Under the pieces are notes generated by a model. It had not been told where the DNA came from. It saw only the letters and a program-made list of their open reading frames with translations, and ran no database searches. This document shows positions 33,911-63,823 of a DNA stretch of 64,000 bases, in pieces. Position 1 is the first letter of the stretch, and each line of letters opens with the position of its first letter. Position numbers and translations under genes: made by a program. This stretch comes from Vicinamibacterales bacterium (GTDB taxonomy: Bacteria > Acidobacteriota > Vicinamibacteria > Vicinamibacterales > UBA2999): positions 6,524 to 70,523 of the forward strand of contig JBEBFY010000003.1 in the NCBI GenBank assembly GCA_040081715.1, written 5' to 3'.

Positions 33911-34693
33911 CTACGCACTCGGTAGCACGATGGCCGCTTGCACGGGCACGTCACGGGCGTCGCCGGGGTAGTAGACGCGCTCCAGCAGCAGCCCGGACGC
34001 CGGTGCCGTGAGCTGTGCCGGGAGGGGAGAGTCCGAGGTCAGCAGGTCCGCCGCGCGCTCCGCCGTCAGCCGGCCCTTGCCCACCTCGACGAGGATGCCC
34101 ACCAGGCGCCGCACCAACTTCCAGATGAAGTGGGAGCCCTCGACGTGCACCAGGATGAGGTCCCCGTCCTCGTAGACATCCAGCGCGTCGAGTTGCACGG
34201 TAGTGGACTTCTCATCCGGGTCATCATCGGAAAAGCTCCGGAAGTCGTGAAACCCGATAAAGCGGGCCGCCGCCTGCTGCATGGCCGTCAGGTCGAGCGG
34301 CTCCTTCACCCACCAGACGACCTGCTTTGAGAACGCGGTCCTCCTCCGGGCGATCTGGTAGATGTAGCTTCTCGCCACTGCGTCGTGCCGCGCGTGGAAG
34401 CGGTGCGGAACGGCTTCCACAGCGAGGAGCACAATGTCAGAGGGCAGGGCCTCGTTCACGCGATCCTTCAGCGTGGATGGTGACAGGGTGGTCCGGATCT
34501 CGAGGTGCGCCACCTGGCGCAGGGCGTGCACGCCGGCATCGGTTCGACCTGAGCCGTACAGCTCGAATCCGTGGGCGCCGGTAGCCTCTCCGATGGCCCG
34601 CTCGATGTCGCCAGCCACGGTGCGGGCATTCTTCTGGATCTGCCAGCCGCTGTAGCGGGTGCCGTTGTACTCGATCGTCAGCTTGAAACGCAT
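33911..34693 (-). CDS. truA: tRNA pseudouridine(38-40) synthase TruA
   Basis: MRFKLTIEYNGTRYSGWQIQ start and catalytic Asp context GSGRTDAGVHALRQV. The ATG at 34693 is chosen over the track start at 34921. Confidence 0.85.
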   Translation of the reverse strand: MRFKLTIEYNGTRYSGWQIQKNARTVAGDIERAIGEATGAHGFELYGSGRTDAGVHALRQVAHLEIRTTLSPSTLKDRVNEALPSDIVLLAVEAVPHRFHARHDAVARSYIYQIARRRTAFSKQVVWWVKEPLDLTAMQQAAARFIGFHDFRSFSDDDPDEKSTTVQLDALDVYEDGDLILVHVEGSHFIWKLVRRLVGILVEVGKGRLTAERAADLLTSDSPLPAQLTAPASGLLLERVYYPGDARDVPVQAAIVLPSA

Positions 34694-34796
34694 GCTGCGG
34701 TTATCAAACCACACGAGGCCCTTGGGAGGCGCCTGGAGACGCGAGGGCGAGCGGGAGCTGCGCTTGGGACGCGGCTCTTCGGTATACTCCCGGGCC

Positions 34797-48965: not shown

Positions 48966-49118
48966 CGGAATCTCTTATAACCGGAAAACGGAGCACTCAT
49001 GACCAGCGGACGGGCGCGGAACTTGCTGTGCACTGTAGAAACCCCCGCAATTGAGGAGCCGAGCGTGAAATCTTCCACGTCCGTCGCGGATAAGTTCGCG
49101 CCGCCGTACTATGGGGCC

Positions 49119-50483
49119 ATGGCGAATGCCACGGTACTGGTTGTCGATGACGAAGCGTTGGTCCGCTGGTCGCTGCGCGAACGGCTGCTGCGGGATCGTT
49201 TCAACGTGCTCGAAGCCGGCACGGCCGCGTCGGCGCTGGAACAGGTCGGCGAGGCGGTGGACCTTATCCTGCTGGACTACCGGCTCCCGGACTCGGACGG
49301 ACTGGTGGTGCTGAGGAAGGTCAAGGAGCTCTACCCCGACACGCTCGTCATTCTGATGACCGCCCATTCCACGGTCGAGAACGCCGTGGAGGCGATGAAG
49401 CTGGGGGCCTTCCACTACATCAACAAGCCGTTCAACGTGGACGAGGTGGCCCTGCTGGTCGAGAAGGCGCTCGAAACCAGCCATCTGCGCCGGGAGGTGA
49501 AGGCGCTCCGAAGCTCAGCCGGGCGGGAATTCAGCTTCGATGCGATCGTGGGCACGTCCCCGAGCATGGAGGCCATCAAGGCGCTGCTGCGCCGCGTGGC
49601 GGTGAGCCCGGCCTCGACGGTGCTGCTGACGGGCGAGACGGGCACGGGCAAGGATCTTGTGGCCAAGTCCATTCACTACAACAGTGATCGGGCGACCCGG
49701 GCCTTCGTCAACATCACCTGCTCGGCGCTGCCAGAACACCTTCTCGAAAGTGAGTTGTTCGGCCACGAGCGCGGGGCGTTCACCGATGCCCGGACGCAGA
49801 AGCGGGGCCTGTTCGAAATAGCCGATGGCGGCACGGTGTTCCTCGACGAAATCGGCGAGATGACGCCGGCGCTCCAGGCCAAGCTCCTGCGCTTTCTGGA
49901 GGAGAAGACGTTCAAGCGCGTCGGCGGGCTGCAGGACATCCGCGTGGACGTGCGCGTGATTGCCGCCACGCACCGCGACCTCGATCAGGGCGTTAAGGAG
50001 GGCAGGTTCCGCGAGGACCTCTTCTACCGGCTCCAGGTGATGCCCATCCACCTGCCGTCGCTGCGGGAGCGCAAGGGGGACGTGCCGCTGCTGGCCAACT
50101 ACTACGTGGACACCTATAACCGCGAGTTCAAGAAGCACGTGAAGGGCATCACGCCGGAGACCATGCCGCTGCTCGAGAGTTACGGGTGGCCCGGCAATAT
50201 CCGTGAGCTGCGCAACGCCGTCGAGCGGGCGATGCTGTTGACCGAACGCGACTGGCTCAGGCCCGAGGACTTCACCACGCTCACGCGATCCGTCGGTGCG
50301 CCCTCCCGGTTCCAGCTCCCTCCCGACGGCATCAACCTGGAGGATGTGGAGCGGCAACTGCTCGTGCAGGCGCTGGAGCGATCCAACGGCAATCAGACGC
50401 ATGCGGGGCAGATGCTGGGGATCAACCGCGATCAGGTGCGCTATCGCATCGAGAAGTTCGGCCTCCAGATTTCTCAGAAATAA
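49119..50483 (+). CDS. sigma-54-dependent response regulator (NtrC family enhancer-binding protein)
   Basis: REC domain (VLVVDDE...LILLDYRLPDSDG), AAA+ domain (GETGTGKD; ESELFGHERGAFTDA, a GAFTGA-type loop) and a C-terminal Fis-type HTH (NQTHAGQMLGINRDQVRYRIEKF). Confidence 0.9.
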   Translation: MANATVLVVDDEALVRWSLRERLLRDRFNVLEAGTAASALEQVGEAVDLILLDYRLPDSDGLVVLRKVKELYPDTLVILMTAHSTVENAVEAMKLGAFHYINKPFNVDEVALLVEKALETSHLRREVKALRSSAGREFSFDAIVGTSPSMEAIKALLRRVAVSPASTVLLTGETGTGKDLVAKSIHYNSDRATRAFVNITCSALPEHLLESELFGHERGAFTDARTQKRGLFEIADGGTVFLDEIGEMTPALQAKLLRFLEEKTFKRVGGLQDIRVDVRVIAATHRDLDQGVKEGRFREDLFYRLQVMPIHLPSLRERKGDVPLLANYYVDTYNREFKKHVKGITPETMPLLESYGWPGNIRELRNAVERAMLLTERDWLRPEDFTTLTRSVGAPSRFQLPPDGINLEDVERQLLVQALERSNGNQTHAGQMLGINRDQVRYRIEKFGLQISQK

Positions 50484-51202: not shown

Positions 51203-52192
51203 TCAGCGCCAGCTTCGCAGGGTCTGCAGGTAGGTGGCGCGCTCGAAGGCCAACGGATCGTCCATGCGGACCAGGCTGGCGCGTCCGCGGGCGTCCTCCA
51301 GACGTGCGACCGCGTGCTCCTCCATCCAGCGGGCGAGACCCGCCCGCATCGTAGCGACATAGCCGGGTCCGTGCCTGAGCAGGGCCGACACCAACTGCAC
51401 GACGTCCGCACCGGCCAGCAACGCCTTGATGCCGTCGTCCGGCGTTGCCACGCCGCCTGTGAGCGCCAGTTGCGCCTTGGTGCGCCCGAACAATGCCGCC
51501 ACCCACCGGAGCCGTAGCAGCAGTTCCTGGCTGGTGGACAGATCCACATGGACGACCGGCGTGGCCGTGGCGATATCGATGTCCGTCTGGTAGACGCGGT
51601 TAAAGAGCACCAGCGCTCCGGCGCCCGCGTCGCTGAGCCGGTTGGCCATGTTGGCGAAGGCGGTGAAGAAGGGCGTCACTTTGACGGCGATCGGAATCGT
51701 CAGCAGGCGCCTGGCGTCGCGGACCATCCGCACCCACTCGTCCTCCACAACGGCACTTGACAGTTTCGGGTCGGCTACTAGTTGATACAGGTTCAGCTCC
51801 AGGGCGTCTGCTCCTGCCCGTTCGACATCCCTGGCAAATGTCAGCCACGACTCGGCCGTGCCCCCGTTGAGCGAGGCGATCACGGGAATTCCGAGGGCGC
51901 GCTTGGCCTCCGCGACGTGCGCCAGATACGCGTCCGGCGTGGCGGCGAAGGCCTTGGAGGTCGGGTAGTGCGTGAGCGTGGCGGCGAAGCGGGGGTCGTG
52001 CGGATCCATGTGGCCAACGCGGCGCTCGCGGGCGTCGGCCACCTGTTCCTCGAACAGGGAGTGCAGCACCACGGCCGCGCAGCCCGCGTCCTCCAGTTGC
52101 CTCAGCGTGTCGATCCGCTGGGAGAGGGGCGATGCACCCGCGATGAACGGGTGGGGGAGCGGGAGTCCCAGATACGTGGTCGTCGTGTTCAT
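51203..52192 (-). CDS. dihydroorotate dehydrogenase-like (class 1 DHOD fold) protein
   Basis: TYLGLPLPHPFIAGASPLS start and TIM-barrel flavoenzyme pattern (IASLNG, VKVTPFF, LTGGVATPDDGIKALLAGADVVQLVSALL). Confidence 0.75.
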   Translation of the reverse strand: MNTTTTYLGLPLPHPFIAGASPLSQRIDTLRQLEDAGCAAVVLHSLFEEQVADARERRVGHMDPHDPRFAATLTHYPTSKAFAATPDAYLAHVAEAKRALGIPVIASLNGGTAESWLTFARDVERAGADALELNLYQLVADPKLSSAVVEDEWVRMVRDARRLLTIPIAVKVTPFFTAFANMANRLSDAGAGALVLFNRVYQTDIDIATATPVVHVDLSTSQELLLRLRWVAALFGRTKAQLALTGGVATPDDGIKALLAGADVVQLVSALLRHGPGYVATMRAGLARWMEEHAVARLEDARGRASLVRMDDPLAFERATYLQTLRSWR

Positions 52193-52220
52193 GCGTGCGT
52201 CTCCGTTCCCCTACCGCGTC

Positions 52221-52235
52221 GCGAAGCCCGTGCCA
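52221..52235 (-). promoter_or_regulatory. sigma-54 promoter match TGGCAC-N5-TCGC
   Basis: Minus-strand TGGCACGGGCTTCGC(G), 29 nt upstream of the DHOD-like ATG. Confidence 0.55.
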
Positions 52236-52374: not shown

Positions 52375-52389
52375 TGGCAACGCGCTTGC
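52375..52389 (+). promoter_or_regulatory. sigma-54 promoter match TGGCAA-N5-TTGC
   Basis: TGGCAACGCGCTTGC(G), 27 nt upstream of the tandem-Usp ATG at 52416, with a GGAGG Shine-Dalgarno in between. This is the first gene of the cytochrome cluster strand. Confidence 0.6.
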
Positions 52390-52415
52390 GACACTGACCG
52401 GATGGAGGCCTCTCG

Positions 52416-53312
52416 ATGACCGCGATGCAACGTGTGCTCTGTCCCGTGGATTTCTCGGAGGGCTGCCGTCACGGAATTGACGTCGCCGTGGCGCTCGCGC
52501 GTGGCGCCGGCGGCCGTCTGACCGCCCTTCATGTACTGCAACCGGTTCCGGCGATGGTGCCGTTCACGGATCCGCTCTCGCTCCCGCCGGGGCTGTGGAC
52601 GCCTGAGGACATCGAATCGGTGCGCAAGGACGTCCTGACGTTCGTCGCCGGAGAGGGGGCCGGTAGCGGCGTGCCAGTGGAGGCGCTGTGCGTGGAGGGC
52701 AATCCGGCCCGCGAGATTCTGCGGAGCGCCGGCGAGCTGCCCGCCGATCTGATCGTGATGGGGACGCACGGCCGGTCCGGCTTCAAGCGGTTGCTGCTTG
52801 GCTCCGTGACAGAGAAAGTGCTCCGGCACGCGACGTGTCCCGTGCTGAGCGTGCCGCCCCGCGCGCCGGACGCCATGCCCTTCGGCACCAAGGTGTTCTC
52901 GAACATCGTTGCGGCCGTGGACTTCTCGGATAGTTCCCAGGCCGGGCTGAAGATTGCGGCGGCGCTCGCCCGCCAGCACGGGGCGACGCTTACGGCGGTG
53001 CACATCGTCGAGCCGGTGCCCACCTACGCGGACTCGGGCATTCCCGGGCTGGACGCCGACATTGAACGCGAGGCGGCGCACGGGTATCTCAAGGGTCTGC
53101 TCGAACGGGTGGCACCAGGGCTGGCGGTGCGCGAAGTGGTGATGATCGGCCACGCAGGCACTGGCGTCCTGCAGGTGGCCGAGAGTCAGCACGCGGACCT
53201 GATCGTGGCCGGCGTGCACGGCCGGAACGCGATGGACCTGATGTTCTTCGGTTCGACCACGAACCGGCTCGTGCGCGAGGCCGCCTGTCCGGTGCTGACA
53301 GTCAGGGGATGA
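52416..53312 (+). CDS. tandem-domain universal stress protein
   Basis: Two Usp domains, each ending in a GxHGRxG...GS(V/T)(T/N)...V...A.CPVL(S/T)V motif. Confidence 0.85.
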   Translation: MTAMQRVLCPVDFSEGCRHGIDVAVALARGAGGRLTALHVLQPVPAMVPFTDPLSLPPGLWTPEDIESVRKDVLTFVAGEGAGSGVPVEALCVEGNPAREILRSAGELPADLIVMGTHGRSGFKRLLLGSVTEKVLRHATCPVLSVPPRAPDAMPFGTKVFSNIVAAVDFSDSSQAGLKIAAALARQHGATLTAVHIVEPVPTYADSGIPGLDADIEREAAHGYLKGLLERVAPGLAVREVVMIGHAGTGVLQVAESQHADLIVAGVHGRNAMDLMFFGSTTNRLVREAACPVLTVRG

Positions 53313-53452
53313 GGCGTGCCTCAGAATGGACCATGGGGACCGTGAGGTGGATTTATTATGAACGGAAATGCCGCCTGCCTTGCCATACTAGGGACCGCCT
53401 ACTCGTGGTGATGGGGTGGAGACAGACCGAGCGGAGTGCAGGGAGGCTGCAG

Positions 53453-54262
53453 ATGCGAGTGCGGGTTGTGATGATTCTGGCGGTGGCGTTGGTGGGGCTG
53501 ATGGCACCTGCCGCGATGGCGCAGTCGAGTAAGTGCGCTGATTGCCACTTTGCCAATCCTGATGCGCCACGCCGTGGCCACTTGAGCGACTGGGACCGGT
53601 CGGCACACGGCCGCCAGAACATCGGCTGCGAGCGGTGCCACGGGGGCAATGCCACGAGCTTCGAGAAGCTGGTGGCCCACAAGGGCATCATCGGATCCGG
53701 CGATCGCAAGAGTGCGGTGCACCGCGCCAACCTCCCGACGACCTGCGGCACTTGCCATGCGGGCCAGTTGATGGAGTTCCAGAAGTCGAAGCACTTTCAA
53801 CTCCTGAAGGCCGACGACAAGCGGGGCCCGACCTGCGCGACCTGCCATGAGGACGTGGGCGACACGCTGCTGTCGCCGAAGTCGCTGGAGGCCCAGTGCA
53901 ACTCCTGCCACGGACCCGGCAAGACGGCACCGCGGCCCGAGCGCGCGAAGAACGCGAGGGCGATGCTGGAAAGTGTGCGTGAAGCCAGGAACCTGCTGAA
54001 GCAGGGGCGTGACCTCATCAAGCAGGTCAAAGACCCACAGCGCAAGGCGCGGCTGACGCAGGAAGCCGAGATGGTGGCGCTGGAGTTGAAGTTCGCGGTT
54101 GAAGCCGGCCACTCGTTTGTCTACGACGGACTGGAGCAGCGCGTGTCGCGGGCCCGGACGAAGCTGACGGCTCTGTTTGACGGGTTGACCAACCCGGGTG
54201 CGGCGGCGAAGCCGGTCAAGGGCGTGCCCCCCCTGCCGGGCAGCACGCAGGCGCGCCGGTAG
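53453..54262 (+). CDS. periplasmic pentaheme c-type cytochrome with helical C-terminal tail
   Basis: Signal peptide MRVRVVMILAVALVGLMAPAAMA and five CxxCH motifs (CADCH, CERCH, CGTCH, CATCH, CNSCH). GGGAGG Shine-Dalgarno before the ATG at 53453. Confidence 0.8.
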   Translation: MRVRVVMILAVALVGLMAPAAMAQSSKCADCHFANPDAPRRGHLSDWDRSAHGRQNIGCERCHGGNATSFEKLVAHKGIIGSGDRKSAVHRANLPTTCGTCHAGQLMEFQKSKHFQLLKADDKRGPTCATCHEDVGDTLLSPKSLEAQCNSCHGPGKTAPRPERAKNARAMLESVREARNLLKQGRDLIKQVKDPQRKARLTQEAEMVALELKFAVEAGHSFVYDGLEQRVSRARTKLTALFDGLTNPGAAAKPVKGVPPLPGSTQARR

Positions 54263-54301
54263 GACGGTCCTGGGGTGCAGGTTGACCGCGGGAGGTGTGC
54301 G

Positions 54302-54712
54302 ATGTGCTCGCGGATTGTGAAGGTGTTCGCGGCCGGGTGTCTGTGCGTGGTCGTGGCCATGCCGTCATCCGGCCAGACTCCCGCTTTGAAGGCGCTAATG
54401 CGGGAGAAGCTGTCGCACTCGCAGCAGTTGCTGGATGCCGTGGTGACCAGCCGCTGGGTGCAGCTGGAAGCGCATGCGGTGGCGCTCCGGAAGTTGACCG
54501 GGCGGCCTGCCTGGATGGTGCTGCAGTCGCCTGAATACGCGCGGCAGACCGCGATATTCACCCGCGCGCTGGATGATCTGGTCGAGGCGGCCCGCCGCAA
54601 GGATCTTGAAGCCACGCCGGTTGCCTACACCGCCATGACGATGAGTTGCGTCCAGTGCCACCGCCAGGTGGCCCGCATGCGGATGGCCGACTCTCCGGCT
54701 TCCACCCGCTGA
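54302..54712 (+). CDS. class II (cytochrome c'-like, four-helix-bundle type) c-type cytochrome
   Basis: Signal peptide, a helical body and a single CxxCH near the C-terminus (MSCVQCHRQV), as in class II cytochromes c. GGAGG Shine-Dalgarno. Confidence 0.6.
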   Translation: MCSRIVKVFAAGCLCVVVAMPSSGQTPALKALMREKLSHSQQLLDAVVTSRWVQLEAHAVALRKLTGRPAWMVLQSPEYARQTAIFTRALDDLVEAARRKDLEATPVAYTAMTMSCVQCHRQVARMRMADSPASTR

Positions 54713-54812
54713 CAGGGCCGCGCCATCGCCTGACAACTGCCTCGCGGGCGGCCATTCCGGCCACGCCCCGGTATGGTCTCCGGCTTGCATTGCACTCCTC
54801 GCAGGAGGGGCG

Positions 54813-55037
54813 ATGCGGATTGTGCGATATCTCAAGTCGGCGCCGGGGCGCATCGCGCGCGGGTTCCTGGGGCTGGGACTCATCGGGGTCGGTGCTCGAA
54901 ACCAGACCGCGACAGGCCTGTTCCTGCTGATGCTGGGGCTGGTGCCGCTGTGCACCGCGATCGCCAATATCTGCCTCCTGGAAGACCTGCTGGCCGCCTG
55001 GGGCAATCGCCGGGACCGCGCGCACCAGCGCACATAG
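54813..55037 (+). CDS. DUF2892 (YgaP-like) small membrane protein
   Basis: GRIARGFLGLGLIGVG...GLVPLCTAIANICLL two-helix pattern typical of DUF2892. Confidence 0.6.
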   Translation: MRIVRYLKSAPGRIARGFLGLGLIGVGARNQTATGLFLLMLGLVPLCTAIANICLLEDLLAAWGNRRDRAHQRT

Positions 55038-55046
55038 GAGGACGTC

Positions 55047-55790
55047 ATGTTCGAGTCCATTAGCGAAGGACATTGCGCAATACCGCACGGAGACTCCGTG
55101 CCGCTGCTGCTGTCGTCCCTCCTGCACGGTGCCGGTTTGGCCGCAGTCATCCTGGTGCCGCTGTTGCTGGCGAACGGTCAGGTGCCCACGTTGCCATCGA
55201 TGATGGCGTTTGTCGCGCGAGAGCCCGCGGCACCACCACCACCGCCGCCGCCGGCGGCTCCAGCCTCCGCGGCAAAGGACGCTGCGGTCCGGCCGACGCC
55301 GTCCTCCAATCCCAGTGCGGCGCCTCTTGAGGCTCCTGCGGAGATCACGCCTGAGCCCGCGCGGGCTGGGTCTGACGACGGCGTGGAGGGCGGTGTGGCA
55401 GGTGGCGTGCTTGGCGGCGTAGTCGGTGGAATCCCGACGGCAGCACCGGCGCCACCACCGCCACCACCGGCGCCGGCACCGGTGGTGCCACGGGCACCGA
55501 TTCGGGTGGGTGGCGAGCTGCAGGTGCCCGCGCTTCTGAAGCGCGTCGGACCTGACTACCCGGAACTGGCTGTACGGGCGCAGGTCGAAGGCGTCGTCAT
55601 TCTCGAGGCGGTTGTCGGCGAGAGCGGGCGCGTGGAGGATGTCCGGGTCCTGCGTTCGATCCCACTGCTCGACAACGCCGCCAAGGCGGCCGTGCGGCAA
55701 TGGGAGTACTCGCCGCTGCTCCTGAACGGCAAGGCGGAGCGATTCATCGTGACGGTGACCGTCAGCTTCCAATTGAAACGGCAGAGTTGA
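55047..55790 (+). CDS. TonB-family energy transducer
   Basis: N-terminal TM, a Pro-rich spacer (PPPPPPPAAP... PPPPPPAPAP) and a C-terminal TonB domain (PDYPELAVRAQVEGVVILEAVVGESGRVEDVRVLRS...AAKAAVRQWEYSP). Confidence 0.85.
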   Translation: MFESISEGHCAIPHGDSVPLLLSSLLHGAGLAAVILVPLLLANGQVPTLPSMMAFVAREPAAPPPPPPPAAPASAAKDAAVRPTPSSNPSAAPLEAPAEITPEPARAGSDDGVEGGVAGGVLGGVVGGIPTAAPAPPPPPPAPAPVVPRAPIRVGGELQVPALLKRVGPDYPELAVRAQVEGVVILEAVVGESGRVEDVRVLRSIPLLDNAAKAAVRQWEYSPLLLNGKAERFIVTVTVSFQLKRQS

Positions 55791-55907
55791 TGTGGGGCTC
55801 CAGACAACGAATGGTCTGCGGGATAGTTCGTGGGCGCGGGAGTTCCTTCGAGTCTGTCCTTATATGCCAGGCGACGTTCCGAAGATAATGACGGGGTGGG
55901 AGGGTAC

Positions 55908-56240
55908 ATGGTTCGAGTGATGGGGATGCTGGCGGTTGTGGGTTGCGTGCTGCTGCCCGGAGTTGCGCGGGCGGAGACGCCTGCCGAGAAGGGTGCCACG
56001 GTGTACGGAGCCCAGAAGTGCGGGATGTGTCACTCCGTGGCCGGCAAGGGCAATCCGAAGGGAGTGCTCGACGGCGTGGGCAAGAAGCTGAAGGCCGATG
56101 AGATCAGGGAGTGGATCGTAGATGCGCCGGCCATGATGGCGAAGGCGAAGGCCACCCGCAAGCCGGCGATGAAGGCCTACGCGAATCTCTCGAAAGGTGA
56201 CCTCGAGGCGCTGGTGGTCTACCTGCAGAGCCTGAAGTAG
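55908..56240 (+). CDS. small class I monoheme c-type cytochrome
   Basis: Signal peptide, a CGMCH motif and a distal Met region (KPAMKAY). About 110 aa. Confidence 0.75.
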   Translation: MVRVMGMLAVVGCVLLPGVARAETPAEKGATVYGAQKCGMCHSVAGKGNPKGVLDGVGKKLKADEIREWIVDAPAMMAKAKATRKPAMKAYANLSKGDLEALVVYLQSLK

Positions 56241-56267
56241 GCGGCCCGGGTTCCCGGGGGATCGTCC

Positions 56268-57629
56268 GTGCGCTCGTTCCTGCAGGCGTTTGTCAGAAAT
56301 GGTCTATCCCTCGTGGGGACCGCGATCGCGACGGCGATGGCGGCGCTCTTTGTCGCACTGGCCCTGCTCGACCTCGCGGGGTATCTCACCAACCCCTATC
56401 TCGGCCTGCTGCTTTTTGTGGCCATCCCGACGGTGTTCGTTGCCGGGCTGCTGCTGATCCCGCTCGGCCTCTGGCGCGAGCGGCGTCGGCGCGCCCGGAC
56501 GCCCGAAGCGGCGACGGGCGAGTGGCCCGTGTTCGACCTCCGCATCGCGCGCCAGCGCGCGATCGCCGTGGCAGTGCTGACCCTGACGGTGGTCAATCTC
56601 GTGATTGTGTCGATGGCGGCGTACGGGGGCGTGCACTACATGGAGACGCGGGAGTTCTGCGGCCAGGTGTGCCACGAGACGATGGAGCCGCAGTATGTGG
56701 CGCATCAGACCGGCCCGCACTCCCGCGTCGCGTGCGTGTCGTGTCACGTCGGGTCGGGTGCGGGGGCGGTCGCACGGTCCAAGTTCAAGGGGCTGCGGCA
56801 GTTGGTGCTTGTAGCGACGGACCGGGCACCTCGGCCTGTGGCCCCGCCGCTGCAGGTCATGCGGCCCGCAGTGGAGACGTGCGAACAGTGCCACTGGCCG
56901 GAGAAGTTTCACGGCGACAGACAGAAAGTTGTGCGCGAGTACGGCGACGACCAGGCGAGCACCGAGACGGGGACCACGCTGACGCTGCACCTCGGCGGCG
57001 GCAGCGCCGTACTCGGCATCGGCACCGGCATCCACTGGCACATGAACCTTGACAATGTCGTCGAATTTGTCGCCACCGACTCCACCCGGCAGTCGATTCC
57101 CTATGTGCGGTTGACCAACCGGGAGGGCCGCGTGAAGGAGTACGTGGCGGAAGGGGCGGACCGGACGACTCTTGCGGCACAGCCCATGCATCGGATGGAC
57201 TGCGTGGACTGCCACAACCGTCCCGCGCATGCCTTCAGCCCCTCGCCGGCACGAGCGGTCAACGAGGCGATGGCTCAGGGGCGGGTGCCGCGTGACCTTC
57301 CGTTCGCCCGCCGTGAGGTGCTGGCAGCAGTGAGCGACGGGTACCCCTCGCGCGATTCGGCGCGCGCGGGCATCGCGCGAAGGCTTGAGGGGATCTACCG
57401 GGCGCAGGGCATCAGCGCCGACCGCACGGCTCGTCTGGTGGCTGGGGCGCAGGACGTGTATGCCCGCAACGTGTTCCCGGCCATGCGAGTGAGTTGGGGC
57501 ACGTATCCGAACAACATTGGCCATATGGATGCGCCGGGGTGCTTCCGTTGCCACGACGATAGCCACAAGGCGGGGGACGGCAGCGTCCTCACACAGGACT
57601 GCGAAACCTGCCACACGGCGCCACAGTAA
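56268..57629 (+). CDS. membrane-anchored NapC/NirT-like multiheme cytochrome c (candidate quinol dehydrogenase)
   Basis: About 3 N-terminal TM helices, then a NapC-like EFCGQVCHETM (a CX3CH variant) plus five CxxCH motifs (CVSCH, CEQCH, CVDCH, CFRCH, CETCH). Confidence 0.7.
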   Translation: MRSFLQAFVRNGLSLVGTAIATAMAALFVALALLDLAGYLTNPYLGLLLFVAIPTVFVAGLLLIPLGLWRERRRRARTPEAATGEWPVFDLRIARQRAIAVAVLTLTVVNLVIVSMAAYGGVHYMETREFCGQVCHETMEPQYVAHQTGPHSRVACVSCHVGSGAGAVARSKFKGLRQLVLVATDRAPRPVAPPLQVMRPAVETCEQCHWPEKFHGDRQKVVREYGDDQASTETGTTLTLHLGGGSAVLGIGTGIHWHMNLDNVVEFVATDSTRQSIPYVRLTNREGRVKEYVAEGADRTTLAAQPMHRMDCVDCHNRPAHAFSPSPARAVNEAMAQGRVPRDLPFARREVLAAVSDGYPSRDSARAGIARRLEGIYRAQGISADRTARLVAGAQDVYARNVFPAMRVSWGTYPNNIGHMDAPGCFRCHDDSHKAGDGSVLTQDCETCHTAPQ

Positions 57630-57639
57630 CGAGGAGACC

Positions 57640-58629
57640 ATGGGGAATCACAAATCGAGTCACCAATCCAGCAACGCGGCGGCGCGCGCGTACTGGCCCG
57701 CGATCCTGGTGGTCGCGCTGGGCGTGACATGGGCCGGCACCGTGATGCTCGCCGCCGCCCCGGCCCGGCCGCGCCAGGTGAGCGCGACGCCTGCAGCGAC
57801 TGCACCCGCGGCCGCGCAGGGGGCCTATGCGGGGCAGGCCGCGTGCCTGGGTTGCCACGCCGAAATGGACTACAAAGGGACGCTGCACGGGCTCGCGTCG
57901 CGTCCGCGCACGCCGGCGGCGACGCACGGCTGCGAAAGCTGCCATGGGCCGGGGCAGGCCCACGCCGAGTCCGGCGAGGCGTCACTGATCCGCAACCCGA
58001 AGAAGCAGACGCCGCAGCAGGCGAGCGAGGCCTGCGTGAGCTGCCACAACCGCGGCACGCACGCGCTGTGGACCGGCAGCCAGCATGACCAGCGCAACGT
58101 CGGCTGCATCACGTGTCACAGCGTGCACACCCCAAAGGGGCCCGCGCAGCTCAAGGCGGCGAGCCAGAAGGAACTGTGCGCGACGTGCCACCGGCCGGTG
58201 ACCAACAAGCAGCACCGGTTCAGCCACATGCCCGTGCGCGAAGGCAAGCTGGAGTGTTCCTCCTGCCACAACACGCACGGCTCCACCAACCAGTCGCTGC
58301 TCAAGACCGGCACCACCGTGGATGAGTCCTGCACCAGCTGCCACGCGGAGAAACGCGGGCCGTACCTCTGGGAGCATGCGCCGGTGGCCAATGCCTGCGT
58401 CACCTGCCATGACCCGCATGGGTCCAACAATGAACGGATGCTGGCGGCGAAGGTGCCCTTCCTGTGCCAGCGGTGCCACGTGACGTCGCGCCATCCGCCA
58501 ACCGTGTACGACGGCTTCGTGCGGAACAACTCGACCAACGCCAACAAGATCATCGGCCGAGGCTGCGTCGTGTGCCACTCGCAGATTCACGGGTCGAATG
58601 CCCCGTCGGGCAAGTCGTTCCTGCGCTAG
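57640..58629 (+). CDS. DmsE/MtrA-family periplasmic decaheme c-type cytochrome
   Basis: Ten CxxCH motifs in 329 aa, at the spacing typical of MtrA/DmsE/PioA/MtoA. The C-terminal CVVCHSQIHGSNAPSGKSFLR matches the family ending. GAGGAG Shine-Dalgarno. Confidence 0.85.
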   Translation: MGNHKSSHQSSNAAARAYWPAILVVALGVTWAGTVMLAAAPARPRQVSATPAATAPAAAQGAYAGQAACLGCHAEMDYKGTLHGLASRPRTPAATHGCESCHGPGQAHAESGEASLIRNPKKQTPQQASEACVSCHNRGTHALWTGSQHDQRNVGCITCHSVHTPKGPAQLKAASQKELCATCHRPVTNKQHRFSHMPVREGKLECSSCHNTHGSTNQSLLKTGTTVDESCTSCHAEKRGPYLWEHAPVANACVTCHDPHGSNNERMLAAKVPFLCQRCHVTSRHPPTVYDGFVRNNSTNANKIIGRGCVVCHSQIHGSNAPSGKSFLR

Positions 58630-58637
58630 GGGAGATC

Positions 58638-60938
58638 ATGCGAACCACAGTTGTGATAGCGGCAGCAGCAGTTACGATCGTCCTGAGCGGGCAGGCACTG
58701 GCGCAGACGCCAGCTGCCAGCGAGGCCAGAAGCCGGGCGGTCACCGGCGTCGTCGACGTCGGTGCCCGCGGGACCTCGGGCTCCGGCGACGAGGCCCGTT
58801 ATGAGCGGTACAGGGATCTGCGCACGGGGGTCTTCTCGCACCTGGTGTTCGGCTCGGCGGACGAGTCGCGGATCTGGTCGGCGGGCGCCGAGAATGTCGG
58901 GTACCGCAACCAGGAATACGTGTTCCGCTACGCCGGCGGTCCGGTCACGCTGAAGGGCGGTTTCGATTCGACGCCTCTCAACTACAGCTACCTGACGTCC
59001 ACGCCGTGGCGCATGGACTCCCCTGGTGTCTTCTCGCTCGACGCGGCCGCCCGCGGGCAGGTGCAGGGCCGGGTGCCGGGTGTCGTGGGCGTGCCGTCGT
59101 CGGTCGCCCAGTTGTCGACGCCTTCGATCTTCCGAGGACTGGCCAATCCCTTTGACCTGCGGTCCCGGCGCGACACGGCGTCGGCGTCCGTGGCGGTGGA
59201 CGCGACCAGGGCGCTCGGCTGGTCGCTGGCGTTCACGTCCACGGGCAAGACCGGCAGCCAGCCCTACGGGGCCTCCTTCGCCTTCAACAACGCCAACGAG
59301 TTGCCCCTGCCGATCGACCATCGCACCAACGATGTGTCGGCGGGCCTGGAGTACACGCGCGAGCAGGGCATGGTGCGTCTGGGCTGGCAGGCCTCGTGGT
59401 TCACCAACGCGATCCAGGAGCTCATCTGGGACAACCCGCTCCGCCAGACGGATACCACGCCCTTCGATGCCAGTGGATACAGCAACGGCAACGGACCGGC
59501 GCGCGGCCGTCTGGCCATGGCGCCCAGCAACCACATGGCGGCCGTCAACGTTACCGGCCTCTACAAGATGCCGGGCCGCACCACGGTCAATGGTGTTTTT
59601 GCCTTCACCACCATGGGGCAGAACGACACGCTCATCCCCTGGACGATCAATAACGCGATTGCCAACCCGTCGGTGTACGGCACCTATCCCGGACTGGCCA
59701 GCCTGCCCCGGCCCACGGCCGAGGCCAAGGTGCACGGCGTCAACGGCATGGTGAACGTGACCTCGCGGCCGAACCGCGTATTCAGCCTGACCACCCGGTA
59801 CCGCTTCAACGACCACCGCAATCTCACGCCGGCTTTCGATGCCCGGCAGTACGTGCGTTTCGACGCTGCGCCGTACTCCGGCGGGTCGTTCAGCCAGAAC
59901 TTCAACATCCGGCAGAACACTTTCGACACGACGGCCGCCTTCAACTTGCGCCCGTCATCAACCCTCCGCGTCGGCTACACCTTCGACGACTTCGACCGCA
60001 CGGGCCGCTCCTTCAGCGACATGCGCGACCATATCGTGCGGGCCTCGTTCGACCAGATGGGCAACCAGTGGGTGACCGTGCGGCTGTCAGCGGACCACAC
60101 GACCCGTGAGGGATTCGGGTTTTCCGAAGCGTCGCTGGAAGACGGCGGACTGCAGCCGGGTGTGCGGTTCTACGATGAGTCCGACCGGAACCGGAATCGC
60201 GGCACGGCCCTCGTGGTGCTGACGCCTGCCTCGTTTATGGACGTGACCTTCACCGCGACGGCCGGCAAGGACATCTACAAGGGCGAGGGGCACGAGTTCG
60301 GGCTGCTGAACAACACGAACCGGTCACTGAACGTCGGCCTGAACGTGAGCCCGGGTGAGCACGCATCCTTCGGGTTCAGCATCGGCCGCGAGATGTTCAA
60401 CTCCCTGCAGCGGTCGCGGAACGCGAACCCGCCCGGAACCGACTACGGCAGCTGGACGGATCCGAACCGGACCTGGGACCTGACGAACGACGAACAGGTC
60501 AACATCGTGGATGTGTATGTGGATCTGGCCAAGCTGTTCCGCGCGTTCGACCTGCGGGCGGACTACCTCTACAGCGACTCCGACAACGGATTCGTCCACA
60601 GTGGTCCACGCGTGGTGGCACTTTCCACCAACGCCGCACTGACACCCGGCGACAGCCGGCCCTGCACGGCGGGGCTCACGTCCTGCTTCGAGGCGTTGCC
60701 GAACGTGACCAATGCCTGGCACCGGGTCACCCTCGACGGGACGCGGTACTTCACCGAGAAGGTCGGCATCGGCGTCAGCTACTGGTACGAGCGGTTCGAC
60801 GTGACCGACTTCGCGCGGGTGGATCTGGCCGGGACGGCACTCCCGCGTATCGACTATCTGGGCGAGATCAACACGGGCTATGGCAACCGGCCGTACCGGG
60901 GCAGTTCGATCTTCACCCGTCTGCTGTATCGTTTCTAA
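58638..60938 (+). CDS. MtrB/PioB-family decaheme-associated outer-membrane beta-barrel protein
   Basis: It follows the decaheme gene after an 8-nt gap. It has a signal peptide (AAAVTIVLSGQALA), N-terminal YERYRDLRTGVF and VGYRNQEY motifs seen in MtrB/PioB, alternating beta-strand patterning over about 740 aa, and a terminal LLYRF. Confidence 0.8.
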   Translation: MRTTVVIAAAAVTIVLSGQALAQTPAASEARSRAVTGVVDVGARGTSGSGDEARYERYRDLRTGVFSHLVFGSADESRIWSAGAENVGYRNQEYVFRYAGGPVTLKGGFDSTPLNYSYLTSTPWRMDSPGVFSLDAAARGQVQGRVPGVVGVPSSVAQLSTPSIFRGLANPFDLRSRRDTASASVAVDATRALGWSLAFTSTGKTGSQPYGASFAFNNANELPLPIDHRTNDVSAGLEYTREQGMVRLGWQASWFTNAIQELIWDNPLRQTDTTPFDASGYSNGNGPARGRLAMAPSNHMAAVNVTGLYKMPGRTTVNGVFAFTTMGQNDTLIPWTINNAIANPSVYGTYPGLASLPRPTAEAKVHGVNGMVNVTSRPNRVFSLTTRYRFNDHRNLTPAFDARQYVRFDAAPYSGGSFSQNFNIRQNTFDTTAAFNLRPSSTLRVGYTFDDFDRTGRSFSDMRDHIVRASFDQMGNQWVTVRLSADHTTREGFGFSEASLEDGGLQPGVRFYDESDRNRNRGTALVVLTPASFMDVTFTATAGKDIYKGEGHEFGLLNNTNRSLNVGLNVSPGEHASFGFSIGREMFNSLQRSRNANPPGTDYGSWTDPNRTWDLTNDEQVNIVDVYVDLAKLFRAFDLRADYLYSDSDNGFVHSGPRVVALSTNAALTPGDSRPCTAGLTSCFEALPNVTNAWHRVTLDGTRYFTEKVGIGVSYWYERFDVTDFARVDLAGTALPRIDYLGEINTGYGNRPYRGSSIFTRLLYRF

Positions 60939-60940
60939 GC

Positions 60941-61396
60941 GTGGCCGACCCGACTGAACCCGATTCGCACGCCGGCGATCGGCGCAGGTTCCTGGATGCC
61001 GTGCTGACATTCGGGTTCGTCTCGACGGCCGTGGCGGTGGCGTACCCGGTGGCCCGCTACATGGTTCCACCGGCCAGCGAGGAGCCCTCGACGGTCAGCG
61101 CGGTGGCGGCCAAGGACGCCGCCATGCCGCCCAACAGCGGCGTCGTCTTCAAGTTCGGCAACAAGCCAGGCATCCTGGTGCGAGACCACGCCGGCGACCT
61201 GCACGCCTTCGACGCCGTCTGCCCGCACCTCGGCTGCACCGTTCAATACCGCCCGGAGACGTCGGATATCTGGTGCGCCTGTCACAATGCGGTGTTCGAC
61301 GTGGGCGGCAACATTGTCTCGGGCCCGCCGCCTCGCCCGCTGGAACGTCTCACGGTGAACGTGAGCGGCGAGGACCTGGTGGTCAGCCGTGGCTAG
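60941..61396 (+). CDS. Rieske [2Fe-2S] subunit of a cytochrome bc-type complex
   Basis: Twin-arginine signal ([10 protein letters not shown]) and Rieske boxes CPHLGC and CACHNAVF. It starts 2 nt after the barrel gene stop. Confidence 0.85.
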
Positions 61397-62513
61397 CCAC
61401 GGCGCCGGGCCGCAGCGGCCGGAAGGGGAGGGCACATCCTCCGGACTCTACGGCTGGCTGGATGAGCGGCTGGACCTGACCGCTATCAGGACATTCGCCG
61501 CCGAGAAGACCGTGCCCGTGCACAAGCGGGAGTTCTGGTACTGCCTCGGCGGTATCACACTGTTCCTGTTTGCCGTGCAGGTGGCCACCGGCATCCTGCT
61601 GATTCTGTACTACCGGCCCAGTGCCGAGGAAGCTTACGAGAGCGTCCAGTTCATCGTGACGCAGGTGGAGTTCGGCTGGCTCATCCGCAACGTCCACGGC
61701 TGGTCCGCCAACCTCCTGATCGGATCGGCGTTCCTCCACATGTTCAGCGTGTGGCTGCTGACGTCCTACCGGAGGCCCCGGGAGATTACCTGGGTCAGCG
61801 GCGCCATCCTGCTGTTTTTGATGATGGCCTTCGGGTTCAGCGGGTACCTGCTCCCGTGGAACGAGCTGGCCCTGTTTGCCACCAAGGTGGGGACCGGCAT
61901 TGTCGGCGCGGTGCCTCTGATTGGCCCGTTCGCCATGCGGGTACTGCGCGGCGGTGACGAAGTGACCGGTGCCACGCTTTCGCGCTTCTATGGGTTCCAC
62001 GTGGCGGTGCTGCCCGCCGTGACCACGCTCCTCTTAGGCCTCCACGTCCTGCTCGTGCAGCGGCAGGGCATGAGCGTGCCCATTGACGTGGAGCAGGCGG
62101 AGCGCGCCGGGTCGCCGCCGAAGAGCCGGCCGTTCTTCCCGGACTTCTTCCTGCGCGACCTCGTGCTCTGGTACGTGGCCATTGCCATCATCGCGGCATT
62201 GGCCGCGTTCCTCCCGTGGGAGTTGGGGAAGAAGGCGGACCCGTTTGCGCCCGTGCCGCCGGGCATTCGGCCTGAGTGGTACTTCGTGGCCATGTTTCAC
62301 ACGCTCAAGCTGATCCCCGGGCACGTCCTCGGCATCGAGGGCGAGGTGCTCGGGATTCTTGGCTTTGGCGTGTTGGCGCTGATCCTCATCGCCATACCGT
62401 TTCTCGATCGGCGGGCCTCGCGTGGCGAGCGGAACCCGATCTTCACGGCGATGGCCTGGCTGGGCATCGCCTACCTGGTGGTGTTCACCATCGTGGGATA
62501 CCTGGCGGAATGA
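61389..62513 (+). CDS. cytochrome b (b6-like N-domain fused to subunit-IV-like C-domain)
   Basis: Heme-ligand His pairs ([19 protein letters not shown]; [21 protein letters not shown]) and the Qo-site motif PEWYF. The GTG start overlaps the Rieske gene stop. Confidence 0.85.
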
Positions 62514-63823
62514 GACCCCCCTGGCTGATCGCGATCTGGGTCGCCGGTGTGCTGGCGTTGGCCGGCACCGGCGGACGCGTGGCGCACCTGGCGGCGCAGC
62601 CGGCTGGCCAGCCTTCCGGACGGGTGGCGAGTGGACCGAACGGGTGCGTGACGTGTCACAGCGCGGAGCGCGAGGCATCCCTCTCGGCTCCGGTCGCGGC
62701 GCACAGGGCTGATGTCCACGGGCAGCGAGGGATCGGCTGCGTGGAGTGCCACGGCGGCGATGCCACGACCGCGGACAAGGTAAAGGCCATGTCGGCCGCG
62801 GCCGGCTTCAAGGGGAAGCTCACGGGCCAGGCGCAGGTGCTGGCGTGCGCGCGGTGCCACAGCGACGCGGCGTATATGCGGACCTTCTCGCCCAAACAGC
62901 GGGTGGACCAGGCGGTCGAGTACGCCGCGAGCGCGCACGGTCGGCGGCTCGCGGAGGGAGACACCCGCGTGGCGACCTGCGCGAGTTGCCACGGGGCGCA
63001 TGGTGTCAGGTCCGCATCGGACGCGCAGTCGCCGGTGTACGCCACCAACGTGGCCGGCACTTGCGGTTCGTGCCACAGCGACGCTCGGCGGATGACGAGG
63101 CACGACGGCACAGCGCATCCCACCGCGGCCGTGGCGGACTACACGTCCAGCGTGCACTTCGACGCCCTGTCGAGACGTCGCGATCTCTCGGCACCTACCT
63201 GCAACGATTGCCATGGCAACCACGGAGCCGCGCCGCCCGGCGTGGACGCGGTCAGCAACGTCTGTGGAACCTGTCACGCTGTGTTTGCCGCCCGTTTCGA
63301 CACCAGCCCTCACAAGCCGGTGTTTGAGAAGGCCTGCGTCGATTGCCACGGCAACCACGCAGTGGTCCGGCCAACCGAAGCGCTCATGGGCACCGGCGCC
63401 GGTGCGATCTGCGTGACCTGTCACGCCGAGAAGGACGACCCGGGTTTCAGGGGGGCCGCCGCCATGCGGGCGTCAATCGACCGCCTCTCCGGCCACATCG
63501 CGAAGGCGGCTGGCGTTGTCGAGCAGGCGAGAAACGCGGGGATGGAAGTCGGCGACCAGGACCTGGCCCTCGGGAAGGCTCGCGATCAGCTGATGCTGGC
63601 GCGCACCGATGTTCATACCTTTGACCCGAAGAAGGTGGAGGGTGTGACCGCCGACGGCGACAAGGTCGCAGCCGAGGCCGAAGCCGGCGGCCGCCGTGCC
63701 CTCGAGGAGCTCAGCTTCAGGCGCCGCGGTCTCACGGCATCGCTGGTGCTGATCCTGGCCGTCGTCGGAGCACTGACGCTGAAAATCCGCCAGATCGACC
63801 AGCGCAGGTCAGCCGCGCAATAA
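62510..63823 (+). CDS. membrane-anchored nonaheme c-type cytochrome (replaces cytochrome c1/f in the bc-type complex)
   Basis: Nine CxxCH motifs, an N-terminal signal/anchor and a C-terminal TM ([17 protein letters not shown]). Its ATG overlaps the cytochrome b stop (ATGA at 62510-62513). Confidence 0.8.

Follow-up and report, generated by a model that had tools for sequence, protein, structure and literature searches.

A four-gene c-ImcH-MtrAB core within a twelve-gene cluster from a Vicinamibacterales bacterium, a likely extracellular electron conduit

The best-known relatives of the gene cluster described here are the porin-cytochrome systems MtrCAB-CymA of Shewanella (Fe(III)/Mn(IV) reduction; structure 6R2Q), MtoAB-MtoD-CymA/ImoA of Sideroxydans lithotrophicus ES-1 (Fe(II) oxidation), PioABC of Rhodopseudomonas palustris TIE-1 (phototrophic Fe(II) oxidation), and extHIJKLMNOPQS of Geobacter, together with the inner-membrane cytochrome ImcH of Geobacter sulfurreducens (GSU3259). 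Relatives of several of these are known from Acidobacteria. MtrCAB is present in Acidobacteriia (PMC8805035), an MtrB-like porin-cytochrome was reported from a Holophaga genome in 2020 (PMC7399161), and PioA and PioB homologues are widespread in the phylum (PMC10654088). Also, the list of ImcH homologues compiled by Shi and colleagues in 2018 has 19 entries from Acidobacteria, and no mtrAB or mtoAB was found beside imcH (PMC6295460). We analysed a window of 64,000 nucleotides from a Vicinamibacterales bacterium (assembly GCA_040081715.1, contig JBEBFY010000003.1, positions 6,524 to 70,523), which contains a cluster of twelve genes. It is likely that this cluster is a respiratory island with a four-gene core, c-ImcH-MtrA-MtrB, and that this core is an extracellular electron conduit; as to direction, we lean toward electron export.

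The cluster occupies 11.4 kb of the + strand (52416-63823). Its products are, in order, a universal stress protein (Usp), a pentahaem cytochrome c, a cytochrome c'-like protein, a DUF2892 protein, a TonB-family protein, a monohaem cytochrome c, an ImcH-like cytochrome, a decahaem cytochrome, an outer-membrane barrel, a Rieske protein, a cytochrome b, and a nonahaem cytochrome (298, 269, 136, 74, 247, 110, 453, 329, 766, 151, 374, and 437 amino acids). An initial annotation, made from the letters of this stretch, had proposed these twelve same-strand genes in this order; we verified their coordinates, and a second, independent gene caller gave the same twelve products on the identical public contig (Logan SRR29156678, 14.6 kb). 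The annotation's figure of about 32 haems also holds, as we count 32 haem motifs in frame: five CxxCH in the pentahaem protein, one in the c'-like protein, one in the monohaem cytochrome, ten in the decahaem, nine in the nonahaem, and five CxxCH plus one CX3CH in the protein that had been called NapC-like. The gaps between the genes, given as 0-140 nucleotides, do reach 140 but go down to −8. From the ImcH-like gene to the nonahaem gene they are only −8 to +10 nucleotides, and gaps of 100-140 nucleotides lie before the pentahaem, DUF2892, and monohaem c genes. The cluster ends within the window, since the next gene 3' of the nonahaem gene is encoded on the other strand. When the window was scanned in six frames, only five stop-free segments had at least two CxxCH motifs, four of them in the cluster, and this clustering is not due to chance. 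The only multihaem open reading frame outside the cluster is a dihaem fusion at 34.6 kb.

Pfam and NCBIfam models assign two Usp domains, YgaP-like/DUF2892, TonB_C, a class-I cytochrome c, an N-terminal NapC/NirT region, a DmsE-family decahaem, MtrB_PioB, Rieske, and cytochrome b. The host belongs to the Vicinamibacterales (Acidobacteriota), which agrees with the earlier impression that the gene content is not proteobacterial. The ImcH-like protein is in GenBank as MEQ1896460.1, from a Vicinamibacterales metagenome-assembled genome (MAG), and of the twenty genome loci with relatives of the barrel, nearly all are in MAGs of Acidobacteriota/Vicinamibacterales. The GC content is flat across the cluster and its flanks (0.65-0.69), so there is no compositional signal of a horizontally transferred island, and the remainder of the window encodes ordinary heterotroph functions.

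The decahaem cytochrome (57640-58629, + strand, 329 amino acids, predicted to be periplasmic) and the barrel (58638-60938, + strand, 766 amino acids) are encoded 8 nucleotides apart. The decahaem scores 254.8 bits against TIGR03508, the DmsE family (cut-off 192.2; model positions 1-258 of 258), which bears out its proposed membership in the DmsE/MtrA family. It aligns over residues 42-327 with Shewanella MtrA (6R2Q_A, E = 4.8e-64), haem for haem, with 10 of 10 CxxCH motifs in register. Identity over the ten-haem core is 40% to MtrA of S. baltica and 41% to the representative of the R. palustris PioA cluster. (The Protein Data Bank (PDB) label of 6R2Q chain A is "Cystathionine beta-synthase", but its sequence, with ten CxxCH in 333 amino acids, shows that it is the decahaem MtrA; filtering by name would miss it.)

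The barrel matches PF11854 (MtrB_PioB) with 243.2 bits (cut-off 23) over profile positions 33-628 of 635, its close homologues are named MtrB/PioB family in public records, and its C-terminus reads LLYRF. An AlphaFold2 model based on 47 homologues (pLDDT 77, pTM 0.70) has 26 strands of at least 8 residues, at the lower end of the 26-28 that had been anticipated. Its top Foldseek match in the PDB is MtrB (6R2Q_B, E = 1.2e-31, TM-scores of 0.71/0.83), at a sequence identity of about 16%. The next matches are TonB-dependent receptors, with TM-scores of 0.26-0.38 when normalised by the query and up to 0.46 when normalised by the target. We therefore rejected the possibility that the barrel is itself a TonB-dependent receptor, as it has no Plug domain and as these scores (at most 0.38/0.46) compare poorly with 0.71/0.83 for MtrB. 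Since the profile hidden Markov models, the PDB sequence match, and the predicted fold agree, the decahaem and the barrel are, by sequence and model, an MtrAB/PioAB-type porin-cytochrome module. This is what the initial annotation had claimed, and the wide margin by which MtrB is the best structural match argues against an unrelated family of outer-membrane proteins.

The absences noted earlier are real within their scope: the window encodes no cytochrome of the MtrC/OmcA type (the best score against TIGR03507 is 24 bits, with a cut-off of 209), and Pfam and NCBIfam scans of the twelve products found no high-potential iron-sulfur protein of the PioC type. Without an MtrC-like protein at the surface, the conduit resembles MtoAB and PioAB in composition and would suit soluble or colloidal partners. 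It differs from MtrCAB-CymA in this respect and in having no CymA, and from PioABC in having no PioC; also, the decahaem does not have the long N-terminal extension of the Rhodopseudomonas proteins (491-548 amino acids) and lies in a different clade. This comes from a search of representatives clustered at 50% identity, which gave 523 clusters at E ≤ 1e-30 for the decahaem and so points to a large family, and from a neighbour-joining tree of 87 representatives. The tree, which has no bootstrap values and has long, star-like branches, shows only that the decahaem is separate from both MtrA and PioA and groups with metagenomic proteins without names in a clade of its own. Among the twenty representatives that we looked up by name, the only labels were PioA (Rhodopseudomonas), Methylomirabilis, Eiseniibacteriota, and Magnetococcales, and none was Sideroxydans or Gallionella.

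The inner-membrane cytochrome (56268-57629, + strand, 453 amino acids) is encoded directly upstream of the decahaem. It has three predicted N-terminal transmembrane segments (residues 11-42, 40-70, and 96-122), a CX3CH motif at 131, right after the third helix, and CxxCH motifs at 156, 205, 312, 425, and 445. The ImcH family has the same layout, with three N-terminal transmembrane helices, an atypical CX3CH beside the third, and then five to nine CxxCH motifs (PMC6295460). In GSU3259, the helices are at 13-35, 45-67, and 100-122 and the haem motifs are at 132, 156, 205, 311, 428, 448, and 486 (PMC6295460, Table S3). Thus, the spacings of the five haems that follow the first are nearly identical, and our protein has six haems instead of seven because the C-terminal one is missing, as it is in homologues from Anaeromyxobacter and several Acidobacteria. 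These six-haem homologues are 450-468 amino acids long, and one of them is from the MAG that contains one of our related loci, L007 (PMC6295460, Table S3), although the relatives of our protein share no accession with that published list. A biochemical study of ImcH describes E127, K173, Q179 (an unusual ligand of haem 1), and Y188 of GSU3259 as conserved. The haem motifs are offset by a constant −1, and when positions are mapped by this offset instead of by direct alignment, the first three correspond to E126, K172, and Q178 of our protein; among 119 aligned sequences, these residues are conserved in 113, 119, and 118, respectively.

The initial annotation had taken this protein for an inner-membrane partner of the CymA/NapC type, and this part of it does not stand. 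A tetrahaem cytochrome of the CymA/NapC/NirT group would have a single transmembrane segment, four haems, and about 190 amino acids. The score against the corresponding model (TIGR02161) is 17.3 bits, with a cut-off of 310.6, and the NapC/NirT match covers only the N-terminal region (28.8 bits). The sole PDB match is to NrfH, over residues 109-209 (transmembrane helix 3 together with the first haems), as has been described for ImcH itself. Because of its three transmembrane helices, its CX3CH and five CxxCH motifs at ImcH spacing, and its ImcH signature residues, the protein is better described as an ImcH-type hexahaem quinol:cytochrome c oxidoreductase. The idea of two entry points from the quinone pool survives in a modified form: two such modules do flank the decahaem-barrel pair, but one of them is ImcH-type rather than NapC-like, and the other is the Rieske/cytochrome b module discussed below. 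The arrangement differs from that of GSU3259 in that the ImcH-like gene is directly upstream of mtrAB. Such a c-ImcH-MtrAB operon contradicts the statement that mtrAB and mtoAB are not found next to imcH (PMC6295460).

The first gene of the core (55908-56240, + strand) encodes a class-I monohaem cytochrome c of 110 amino acids, probably periplasmic (Pfam Cytochrom_C, 42.5 bits). Its matches to solved structures are weak ones to class-I cytochromes, and no solved MtoD-like protein resembles it at E ≤ 1. The core as a whole is like the Mto system in that one cluster encodes a small monohaem c, a quinone-reactive inner-membrane cytochrome of the NapC superfamily, a decahaem, and an MtrB/PioB-type barrel, with no surface cytochrome. 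It is unlike the Mto system in its inner-membrane partner (three transmembrane helices and six haems, where CymA/ImoA is a tetrahaem protein with a single transmembrane segment), in a monohaem c that has no detectable similarity to the solved small cytochromes of that pathway, in its heterotroph-type acidobacterial host, and in the extra Rieske/cytochrome b/nonahaem module.

To see which of the twelve genes stay together, we compared two sets of related loci: four loci on long contigs that encode ImcH-like homologues (59-62% identity), and 21 loci that encode relatives of the barrel and have at least 5 kb of flanking sequence. In 4 of 4 ImcH-anchored loci, genes for a cytochrome c (108-111 amino acids), an ImcH-like protein, a decahaem (327-340 amino acids), and an MtrB_PioB barrel follow each other with short gaps. 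These four genes are the conserved unit. The decahaem and barrel genes are adjacent in all 20 of the barrel genome loci except L002 and L016, which are fragments at contig ends that have only the barrel gene. An ImcH-like gene lies beside the pair in 4 of the 21 barrel-anchored loci. The ImcH-decahaem-barrel block is also found in L008, L009, and L015, where it follows genes for an 11-haem cytochrome and a b561-type (CbcL-like) membrane protein. Rieske and cytochrome b genes are within 10 kb in 3 of the 21 loci, and none were found within 7 kb of the four ImcH-anchored operons. The closest relative, L001, with a barrel that is 73% identical, has the whole layout from the kinase (see below) to a multihaem cytochrome c after cytochrome b, and it has no ImcH gene; outside the window, the full layout occurs only there. 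Tandem Usp proteins, sigma-54-dependent response regulators, PAS-domain kinases, and TonB_C proteins recur around the related operons, and a c'-like protein and a multicopper oxidase occur once each. A survey of gene neighbourhoods had been suggested as a check on the cluster, and the result is divided: the four-gene core recurs, but the twelve genes do not form one conserved system. The twelve together make up a composite that is specific to the lineage and built around this core, and its inner-membrane modules look modular and are perhaps interchangeable.

Some of the related loci have unusual contents of their own. The acidobacterial locus L015 (4738-20871) has mtrAB among four different quinone-pool modules: a multihaem cytochrome (with 11 haems in its L008 and L009 counterparts) and a b561-type, CbcL-like protein; an ImcH-like protein; a multihaem cytochrome with a 4Fe-4S protein and NrfD (NrfCD/ACIII-like); and Rieske, cytochrome b, and nonahaem proteins, followed by Usp. 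In a Gemmatimonadaceae MAG (L023, 549-14396), mtrAB is found with genes for a Rieske protein, a cytochrome b-c fusion, two large CbcL-like proteins, and, on the other strand, an ImcH-like protein. A Vicinamibacterales MAG (L010, 5036-15785) has three tandem decahaem-barrel pairs, whose barrels are 22%, 51%, and 31% identical to the one in the window. Finally, directly downstream of the c-ImcH-MtrAB operon of L025, on the opposite strand, are genes for a three-domain multicopper oxidase and a tandem Usp (11825-14167); the oxidase may bear on metal oxidation.

The second quinone-pool module begins immediately after the barrel, as the start codon of the Rieske gene is 2 nucleotides past the barrel stop. 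The Rieske [2Fe-2S] protein (60941-61396, + strand) is b6f/PetC-like, with a predicted N-terminal transmembrane anchor and CPHLGC and CACH motifs (Pfam Rieske, 48.7 bits, above cut-off; NCBIfam PetC models, 70-72 bits, under cut-off). Cytochrome b (61389-62513, + strand) has a b6-type N-terminal part fused to a C-terminal part like subunit IV (Cytochrome_B, 174 bits, above cut-off, plus Cytochrom_B_C), with HX13H at 103, HX14H at 204 (a b6-like spacing), and PEWY at 295. Its best NCBIfam models are cytochrome b6 (249.5 bits, cut-off 325) and ExtP of Geobacter (215 bits, cut-off 290), so neither cut-off is reached. The third gene (62510-63823, + strand), whose start overlaps the cytochrome b stop by 4 nucleotides, encodes a membrane-anchored nonahaem cytochrome c with an N-terminal signal or transmembrane segment and a predicted C-terminal transmembrane helix at 406-430. 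It takes the place of the canonical c1 or f-type monohaem subunit, and we presume that it is the c-type subunit of the Rieske/cytochrome b complex. All nine CxxCH motifs are invariant in an alignment of 40 sequences. Proteins that are 53% and 41% identical are encoded after Rieske and cytochrome b in L015 and L001, respectively.

The AlphaFold2 model of the nonahaem protein (pLDDT 82.7) has three long, confidently predicted helices (311-436) that lead to the C-terminal transmembrane segment, and Foldseek found no significant fold match for it in the PDB (best E = 0.15). The protein is weakly similar to MtrA-type decahaems (TIGR03508, 73 bits; 6R2Q_A, E = 3e-5), and a role as an MtrA-like wire would rest on this similarity only. 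The pentahaem and nonahaem proteins look like paralogues: in tblastn, the pentahaem protein matches nonahaem genes at 24-26% identity. At their C-termini, both proteins have a long stretch of helix in which a His-x-Phe is conserved (its H369 does not vary among nonahaem homologues), although the pentahaem protein does not have the membrane anchor.

The Geobacter ext cluster offers a precedent for such a neighbourhood: there, genes for a porin-cytochrome conduit adjoin those for multihaem cytochromes, for the Rieske protein ExtO, and for the cytochrome b ExtP (PMC5877670); our cytochrome b scores on the ExtP model as given above. The ext cluster differs in its porin, which is of the ExtI type (about 45 kDa) instead of the MtrB type, and in its rhodanese and selenoprotein cytochrome, which have no counterpart here. 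One reading, which we consider unlikely, is that the Rieske/cytochrome b and nonahaem proteins are a dedicated partner of MtrAB that is interchangeable with ImcH. If so, extracellular electron transfer would be coupled directly to a proton-motive Q-cycle or, with the complex in reverse, electron uptake would be, and this in an order that ranks among the most abundant bacteria of soils. To our knowledge, no characterised pathway of extracellular electron transfer has been shown to use a Q-cycle complex that is coupled directly to the conduit.

The genes upstream of the cluster suggest how it could be regulated. A PAS-domain histidine kinase (47568-48965, − strand; Pfam PAS, HisKA, HATPase_c), which is a candidate sensor, and an NtrC-type sigma-54-dependent response regulator (48999-50483, + strand; Pfam Response_reg, Sigma54_activat, HTH_8), which is a candidate activator, are encoded 2-5 kb upstream. 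(The response regulator is under the equivalog cut-offs of the AtoC/NtrC-like models in NCBIfam.) The pair is syntenic in L001, and PAS-domain kinases with sigma-54-dependent response regulators also adjoin the c-imcH-mtrAB operon in L025, in L026, and in contig JGI 3300056388. A sigma-54-type −24/−12 promoter-like element, TGGCAACGCGCTTGCG (52375-52390, + strand), ends 25 nucleotides before the usp start codon, and L001 keeps it as TGGCAGTGCGATTGCG within an otherwise diverged intergenic region. Similar sites lie at most 150 nucleotides upstream of 3 of 8 related operons, where 0.16 would be expected; the motif by itself is not significant in the window (32 matches, 27 expected). It appears that the cluster, together with Usp, is switched on from a sigma-54 promoter by the PAS kinase and the NtrC-type regulator. 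This regulatory company points to a response to limitation of energy or oxygen.

From family identities, the predicted fold, and the gene order and its conservation, we infer how these proteins may form a complex, with which partners, under what regulation, and in which direction. The composition of the cluster could link the quinone pool to the cell surface, via ImcH and/or the Rieske/cytochrome b and nonahaem proteins, then periplasmic cytochromes, and then MtrA inside MtrB. The ImcH-type protein would exchange electrons with the menaquinone pool at a site beside its first haem. The monohaem c, the pentahaem protein, and perhaps the c'-like protein would ferry electrons through the periplasm, and the decahaem, threaded through the barrel, would take them over the outer membrane to a surface-exposed terminal haem. 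The preferred partners would be soluble or colloidal, such as chelated iron, manganese species, humics, or shuttles. Where the Rieske/cytochrome b and nonahaem genes lie directly downstream, as in this genome and in a few relatives, their products probably provide a further connection to the quinone pool. As to direction, we lean toward export, in which a heterotroph short of oxygen would respire with extracellular acceptors. We give export a little over half of the weight and uptake about a third, and we leave the rest to bidirectional flow or something else. In Geobacter, ImcH oxidises menaquinol and reduces periplasmic cytochromes (10.1101/2023.05.03.539133), and the 2018 survey found ImcH only in Fe(III) reducers (PMC6295460), both of which count for export. 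So does a survey of MAGs with porin-cytochrome complexes (PCC), as those with the decahaem-porin type mostly do not encode carbon fixation, and the survey itself also favours export (PMC13264449). Export is also favoured by the heterotroph-like lineage and window, by the regulatory company, and by ImcH being known only as a menaquinol oxidase for high-potential acceptors.

Several observations weigh against this overall reading of the cluster. Across this clade, such conduits are known from genes alone. Most relatives of the barrel belong to orphan mtrAB pairs among unrelated genes. The barrel is under the cut-off of TIGR03509 (189.9 bits, cut-off 240.05), and a sequence search of the PDB with it gave no match at E ≤ 0.01. 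ImcH homology was judged from the layout and the signature residues rather than from a direct alignment with GSU3259, and the equivalent of Y188 is not conserved in the ImcH-like family (119 aligned sequences). Scans of the cluster for sigma-70 promoters and terminators found no more sites than in shuffled sequence, so that they do not mark the boundaries of a possible co-transcribed unit. The nonahaem family is also far more abundant than the barrel family (at least 7327 proteins at E ≤ 1e-8 and at least 908 at E ≤ 1e-10, respectively, with these differing thresholds and a ceiling of 8000 scored candidates in either search), and so the Rieske/cytochrome b module may serve respiration in general and simply happen to lie next to the conduit genes here. 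Furthermore, the characterised MtrAB-only systems without a surface cytochrome, MtoAB and PioAB, oxidise Fe(II) (PMC5566968, PMC10654088), and a class-I monohaem c with a Rieske/cytochrome b complex would also suit an uptake chain.

The last two points bear on direction, and electron uptake is a serious, if less probable, alternative to export. The conduit would then oxidise extracellular Fe(II), Mn(II), or reduced humics, or draw on a cathode, in the manner of MtoAB and PioAB. The decahaem would hand its electrons to the monohaem c, from which they would reach a terminal oxidase, with a branch that could run uphill to the quinones via the nonahaem and Rieske/cytochrome b proteins or via ImcH. 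The missing MtrC/OmcA-type cytochrome in the window fits this, as the characterised two-component systems are Fe(II) oxidisers, and the gene content parallels mtoD-cymA-mtoA-mtoB. A bc-type complex beside an outer-membrane iron oxidase recalls the uphill branch of Acidithiobacillus (PMC5566968), and a multicopper oxidase is encoded beside one related operon (L025). The decahaem, moreover, is as near to PioA (41%) as to MtrA (40%). However, quinol oxidation is the only activity with which ImcH has been linked, the window gives no sign of autotrophy, and the monohaem c is not detectably similar to any solved MtoD-like protein at E ≤ 1. Described Vicinamibacteraceae are heterotrophic, and Usp, sigma-54, and a PAS kinase fit starvation or hypoxia better than lithotrophy, if weakly. 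Export could also end at an enzyme: in a system like DmsEF, the pair would feed a terminal reductase on the surface that is encoded elsewhere, for instance a molybdoenzyme for dimethyl sulfoxide (DMSO) or iodate. The best curated family for the decahaem is in fact named after DmsE, and a paralogous pair in Shewanella serves the extracellular reduction of DMSO and iodate (PMC9732548). We think this very improbable, as neither the cluster nor the surveyed c-ImcH-MtrAB operons contain a DmsAB-type or molybdopterin gene (we rejected a DmsEFAB-type system on the same ground for the cluster), and the molybdoenzymes near orphan pairs, in L022, are of the aldehyde/xanthine-dehydrogenase type, cytoplasmic, and several genes away.

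The extent of the system is a separate matter, and there is somewhat less than an even chance that only the four-gene core serves extracellular electron transfer. If so, Rieske, cytochrome b, and the nonahaem would be a general enzyme of the complex-III type, and Usp, DUF2892, TonB, the pentahaem, and the c'-like protein would be neighbours by lineage-specific synteny and not parts of one machine. The distribution of the genes is the main argument for this. The full layout recurs only in L001, 17 of 21 barrel-anchored loci have no ImcH nearby and 18 of 21 have no Rieske/cytochrome b nearby, and the ImcH-anchored operons do without Rieske/cytochrome b within 7 kb. The size of the nonahaem family and the wide gaps before the pentahaem, DUF2892, and monohaem c genes point the same way. 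Against this, the genes from ImcH to the nonahaem are packed as tightly as described above, with the Rieske start just past the barrel stop, and Rieske/cytochrome b genes are found close to mtrAB in L015 and L023, which belong to different phyla, as well as in MAG clusters from the literature (PMC13264449). L001 has the bc-type module and no ImcH, as if one replaces the other; the Geobacter ext porin-cytochrome cluster keeps its Rieske and cytochrome b genes; and Usp follows the nonahaem gene in L015.

How new is a c-ImcH-MtrAB conduit of this kind? The initial annotation did not recognise the combination as a described system, which is too strong. Names from PGAP and IMG already place these proteins in the MtrB/PioB and DmsE families, and the acidobacterial PioA/PioB homologues (PMC10654088), the Geobacter ext cluster (PMC5877670), and a MAG survey published in 2026 (PMC13264449) precede our analysis. 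In that survey of karst MAGs, the "Group 2" clusters have a small decahaem beside a porin of 25-36 strands, 6 of 8 have ImcH- or NapC/NirT-like inner-membrane cytochromes, and several have petB/petC; compared by the survey-level description, they are likely to be from the same clade as ours. (Of the karst MAGs with PCC overall, and not of group 2 specifically, 21 of 36 are Gammaproteobacteria or Acidobacteriota; PMC13264449.) We found no paper that links Vicinamibacterales by name to Mto or Mtr genes. Rather than a new kind of system, the cluster is a real and fairly common variant of the known Mtr/Mto/Pio systems whose inner-membrane partner differs, and its novelty lies in a variant architecture, already glimpsed in a MAG survey, in an abundant and understudied lineage. 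Current models are not overturned but are extended to a new lineage and a new combination of partners.

The usual view of Vicinamibacterales (Acidobacteria subgroup 6), which are among the commonest bacteria of soils and sediments, is that they are aerobic heterotrophs. Should a conserved, sigma-54-regulated c-ImcH-MtrAB operon be present in many of them, then a large, overlooked share of the soil community could trade electrons with iron, manganese, and humics once oxygen is gone. The four-gene unit is a concrete target for searches of metagenomes and metatranscriptomes, and the adjacency of the Rieske/cytochrome b and nonahaem genes leads to a testable idea about how much energy can be gained from extracellular respiration.

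The other genes of the cluster lie upstream of the core, all on the + strand. The first encodes a tandem Usp (52416-53312; two Pfam Usp domains, 225 bits). The pentahaem cytochrome c (53453-54262, 269 amino acids) has five CxxCH motifs, a hydrophobic N-terminus that is predicted to be a signal peptide, and a helical tail at its C-terminus; it is predicted to be periplasmic and is 85% identical in L001. The small monohaem protein that follows (54302-54712, with the start taken from the independent gene call) has a C-terminal CVQCH and is cytochrome c'-like, with 21.3 bits against Pfam Cytochrom_C_2 (under the cut-off of 26.5); such a gene is also found upstream of the L026 operon. The YgaP-like/DUF2892 small membrane protein (54813-55037; PF11127, 31.6 bits) is conserved in L001. 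The TonB-family protein (55047-55790, 247 amino acids; Pfam TonB_C, 69.8 bits) has counterparts near mtrAB in L001 (7527-8618), L026 (1706-2425), and a contig of JGI 3300047160, and no ExbBD genes were found near the TonB_C genes of these cytochrome clusters in the loci surveyed. We know of no plug or TonB box in MtrB-type barrels.

Divergent from usp is a gene for a 329-amino-acid "dihydroorotate dehydrogenase-like protein" (51203-52192, − strand; NCBIfam NF005741, 383 bits, above cut-off), which has its own sigma-54-like −24/−12 site, TGGCACGGGCTTCGCG (52220-52235), and which is also found near mtrAB in L001, L008, L011, and one JGI contig. The dihaem fusion mentioned above (34659-36239, 526 amino acids) is the only haem protein in the window besides those of the cluster; in it, two domains of class-I cytochrome c are fused to one of the 3-keto-disaccharide hydrolase (DUF1080) type. 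Finally, large CBM9/DUF5916 proteins are encoded twice in the window (28055-30358 and 44191-46413) and also a few genes upstream of the orphan mtrAB pairs of L022 (2164-4407) and L028 (1783-4023), which is probably lineage synteny.

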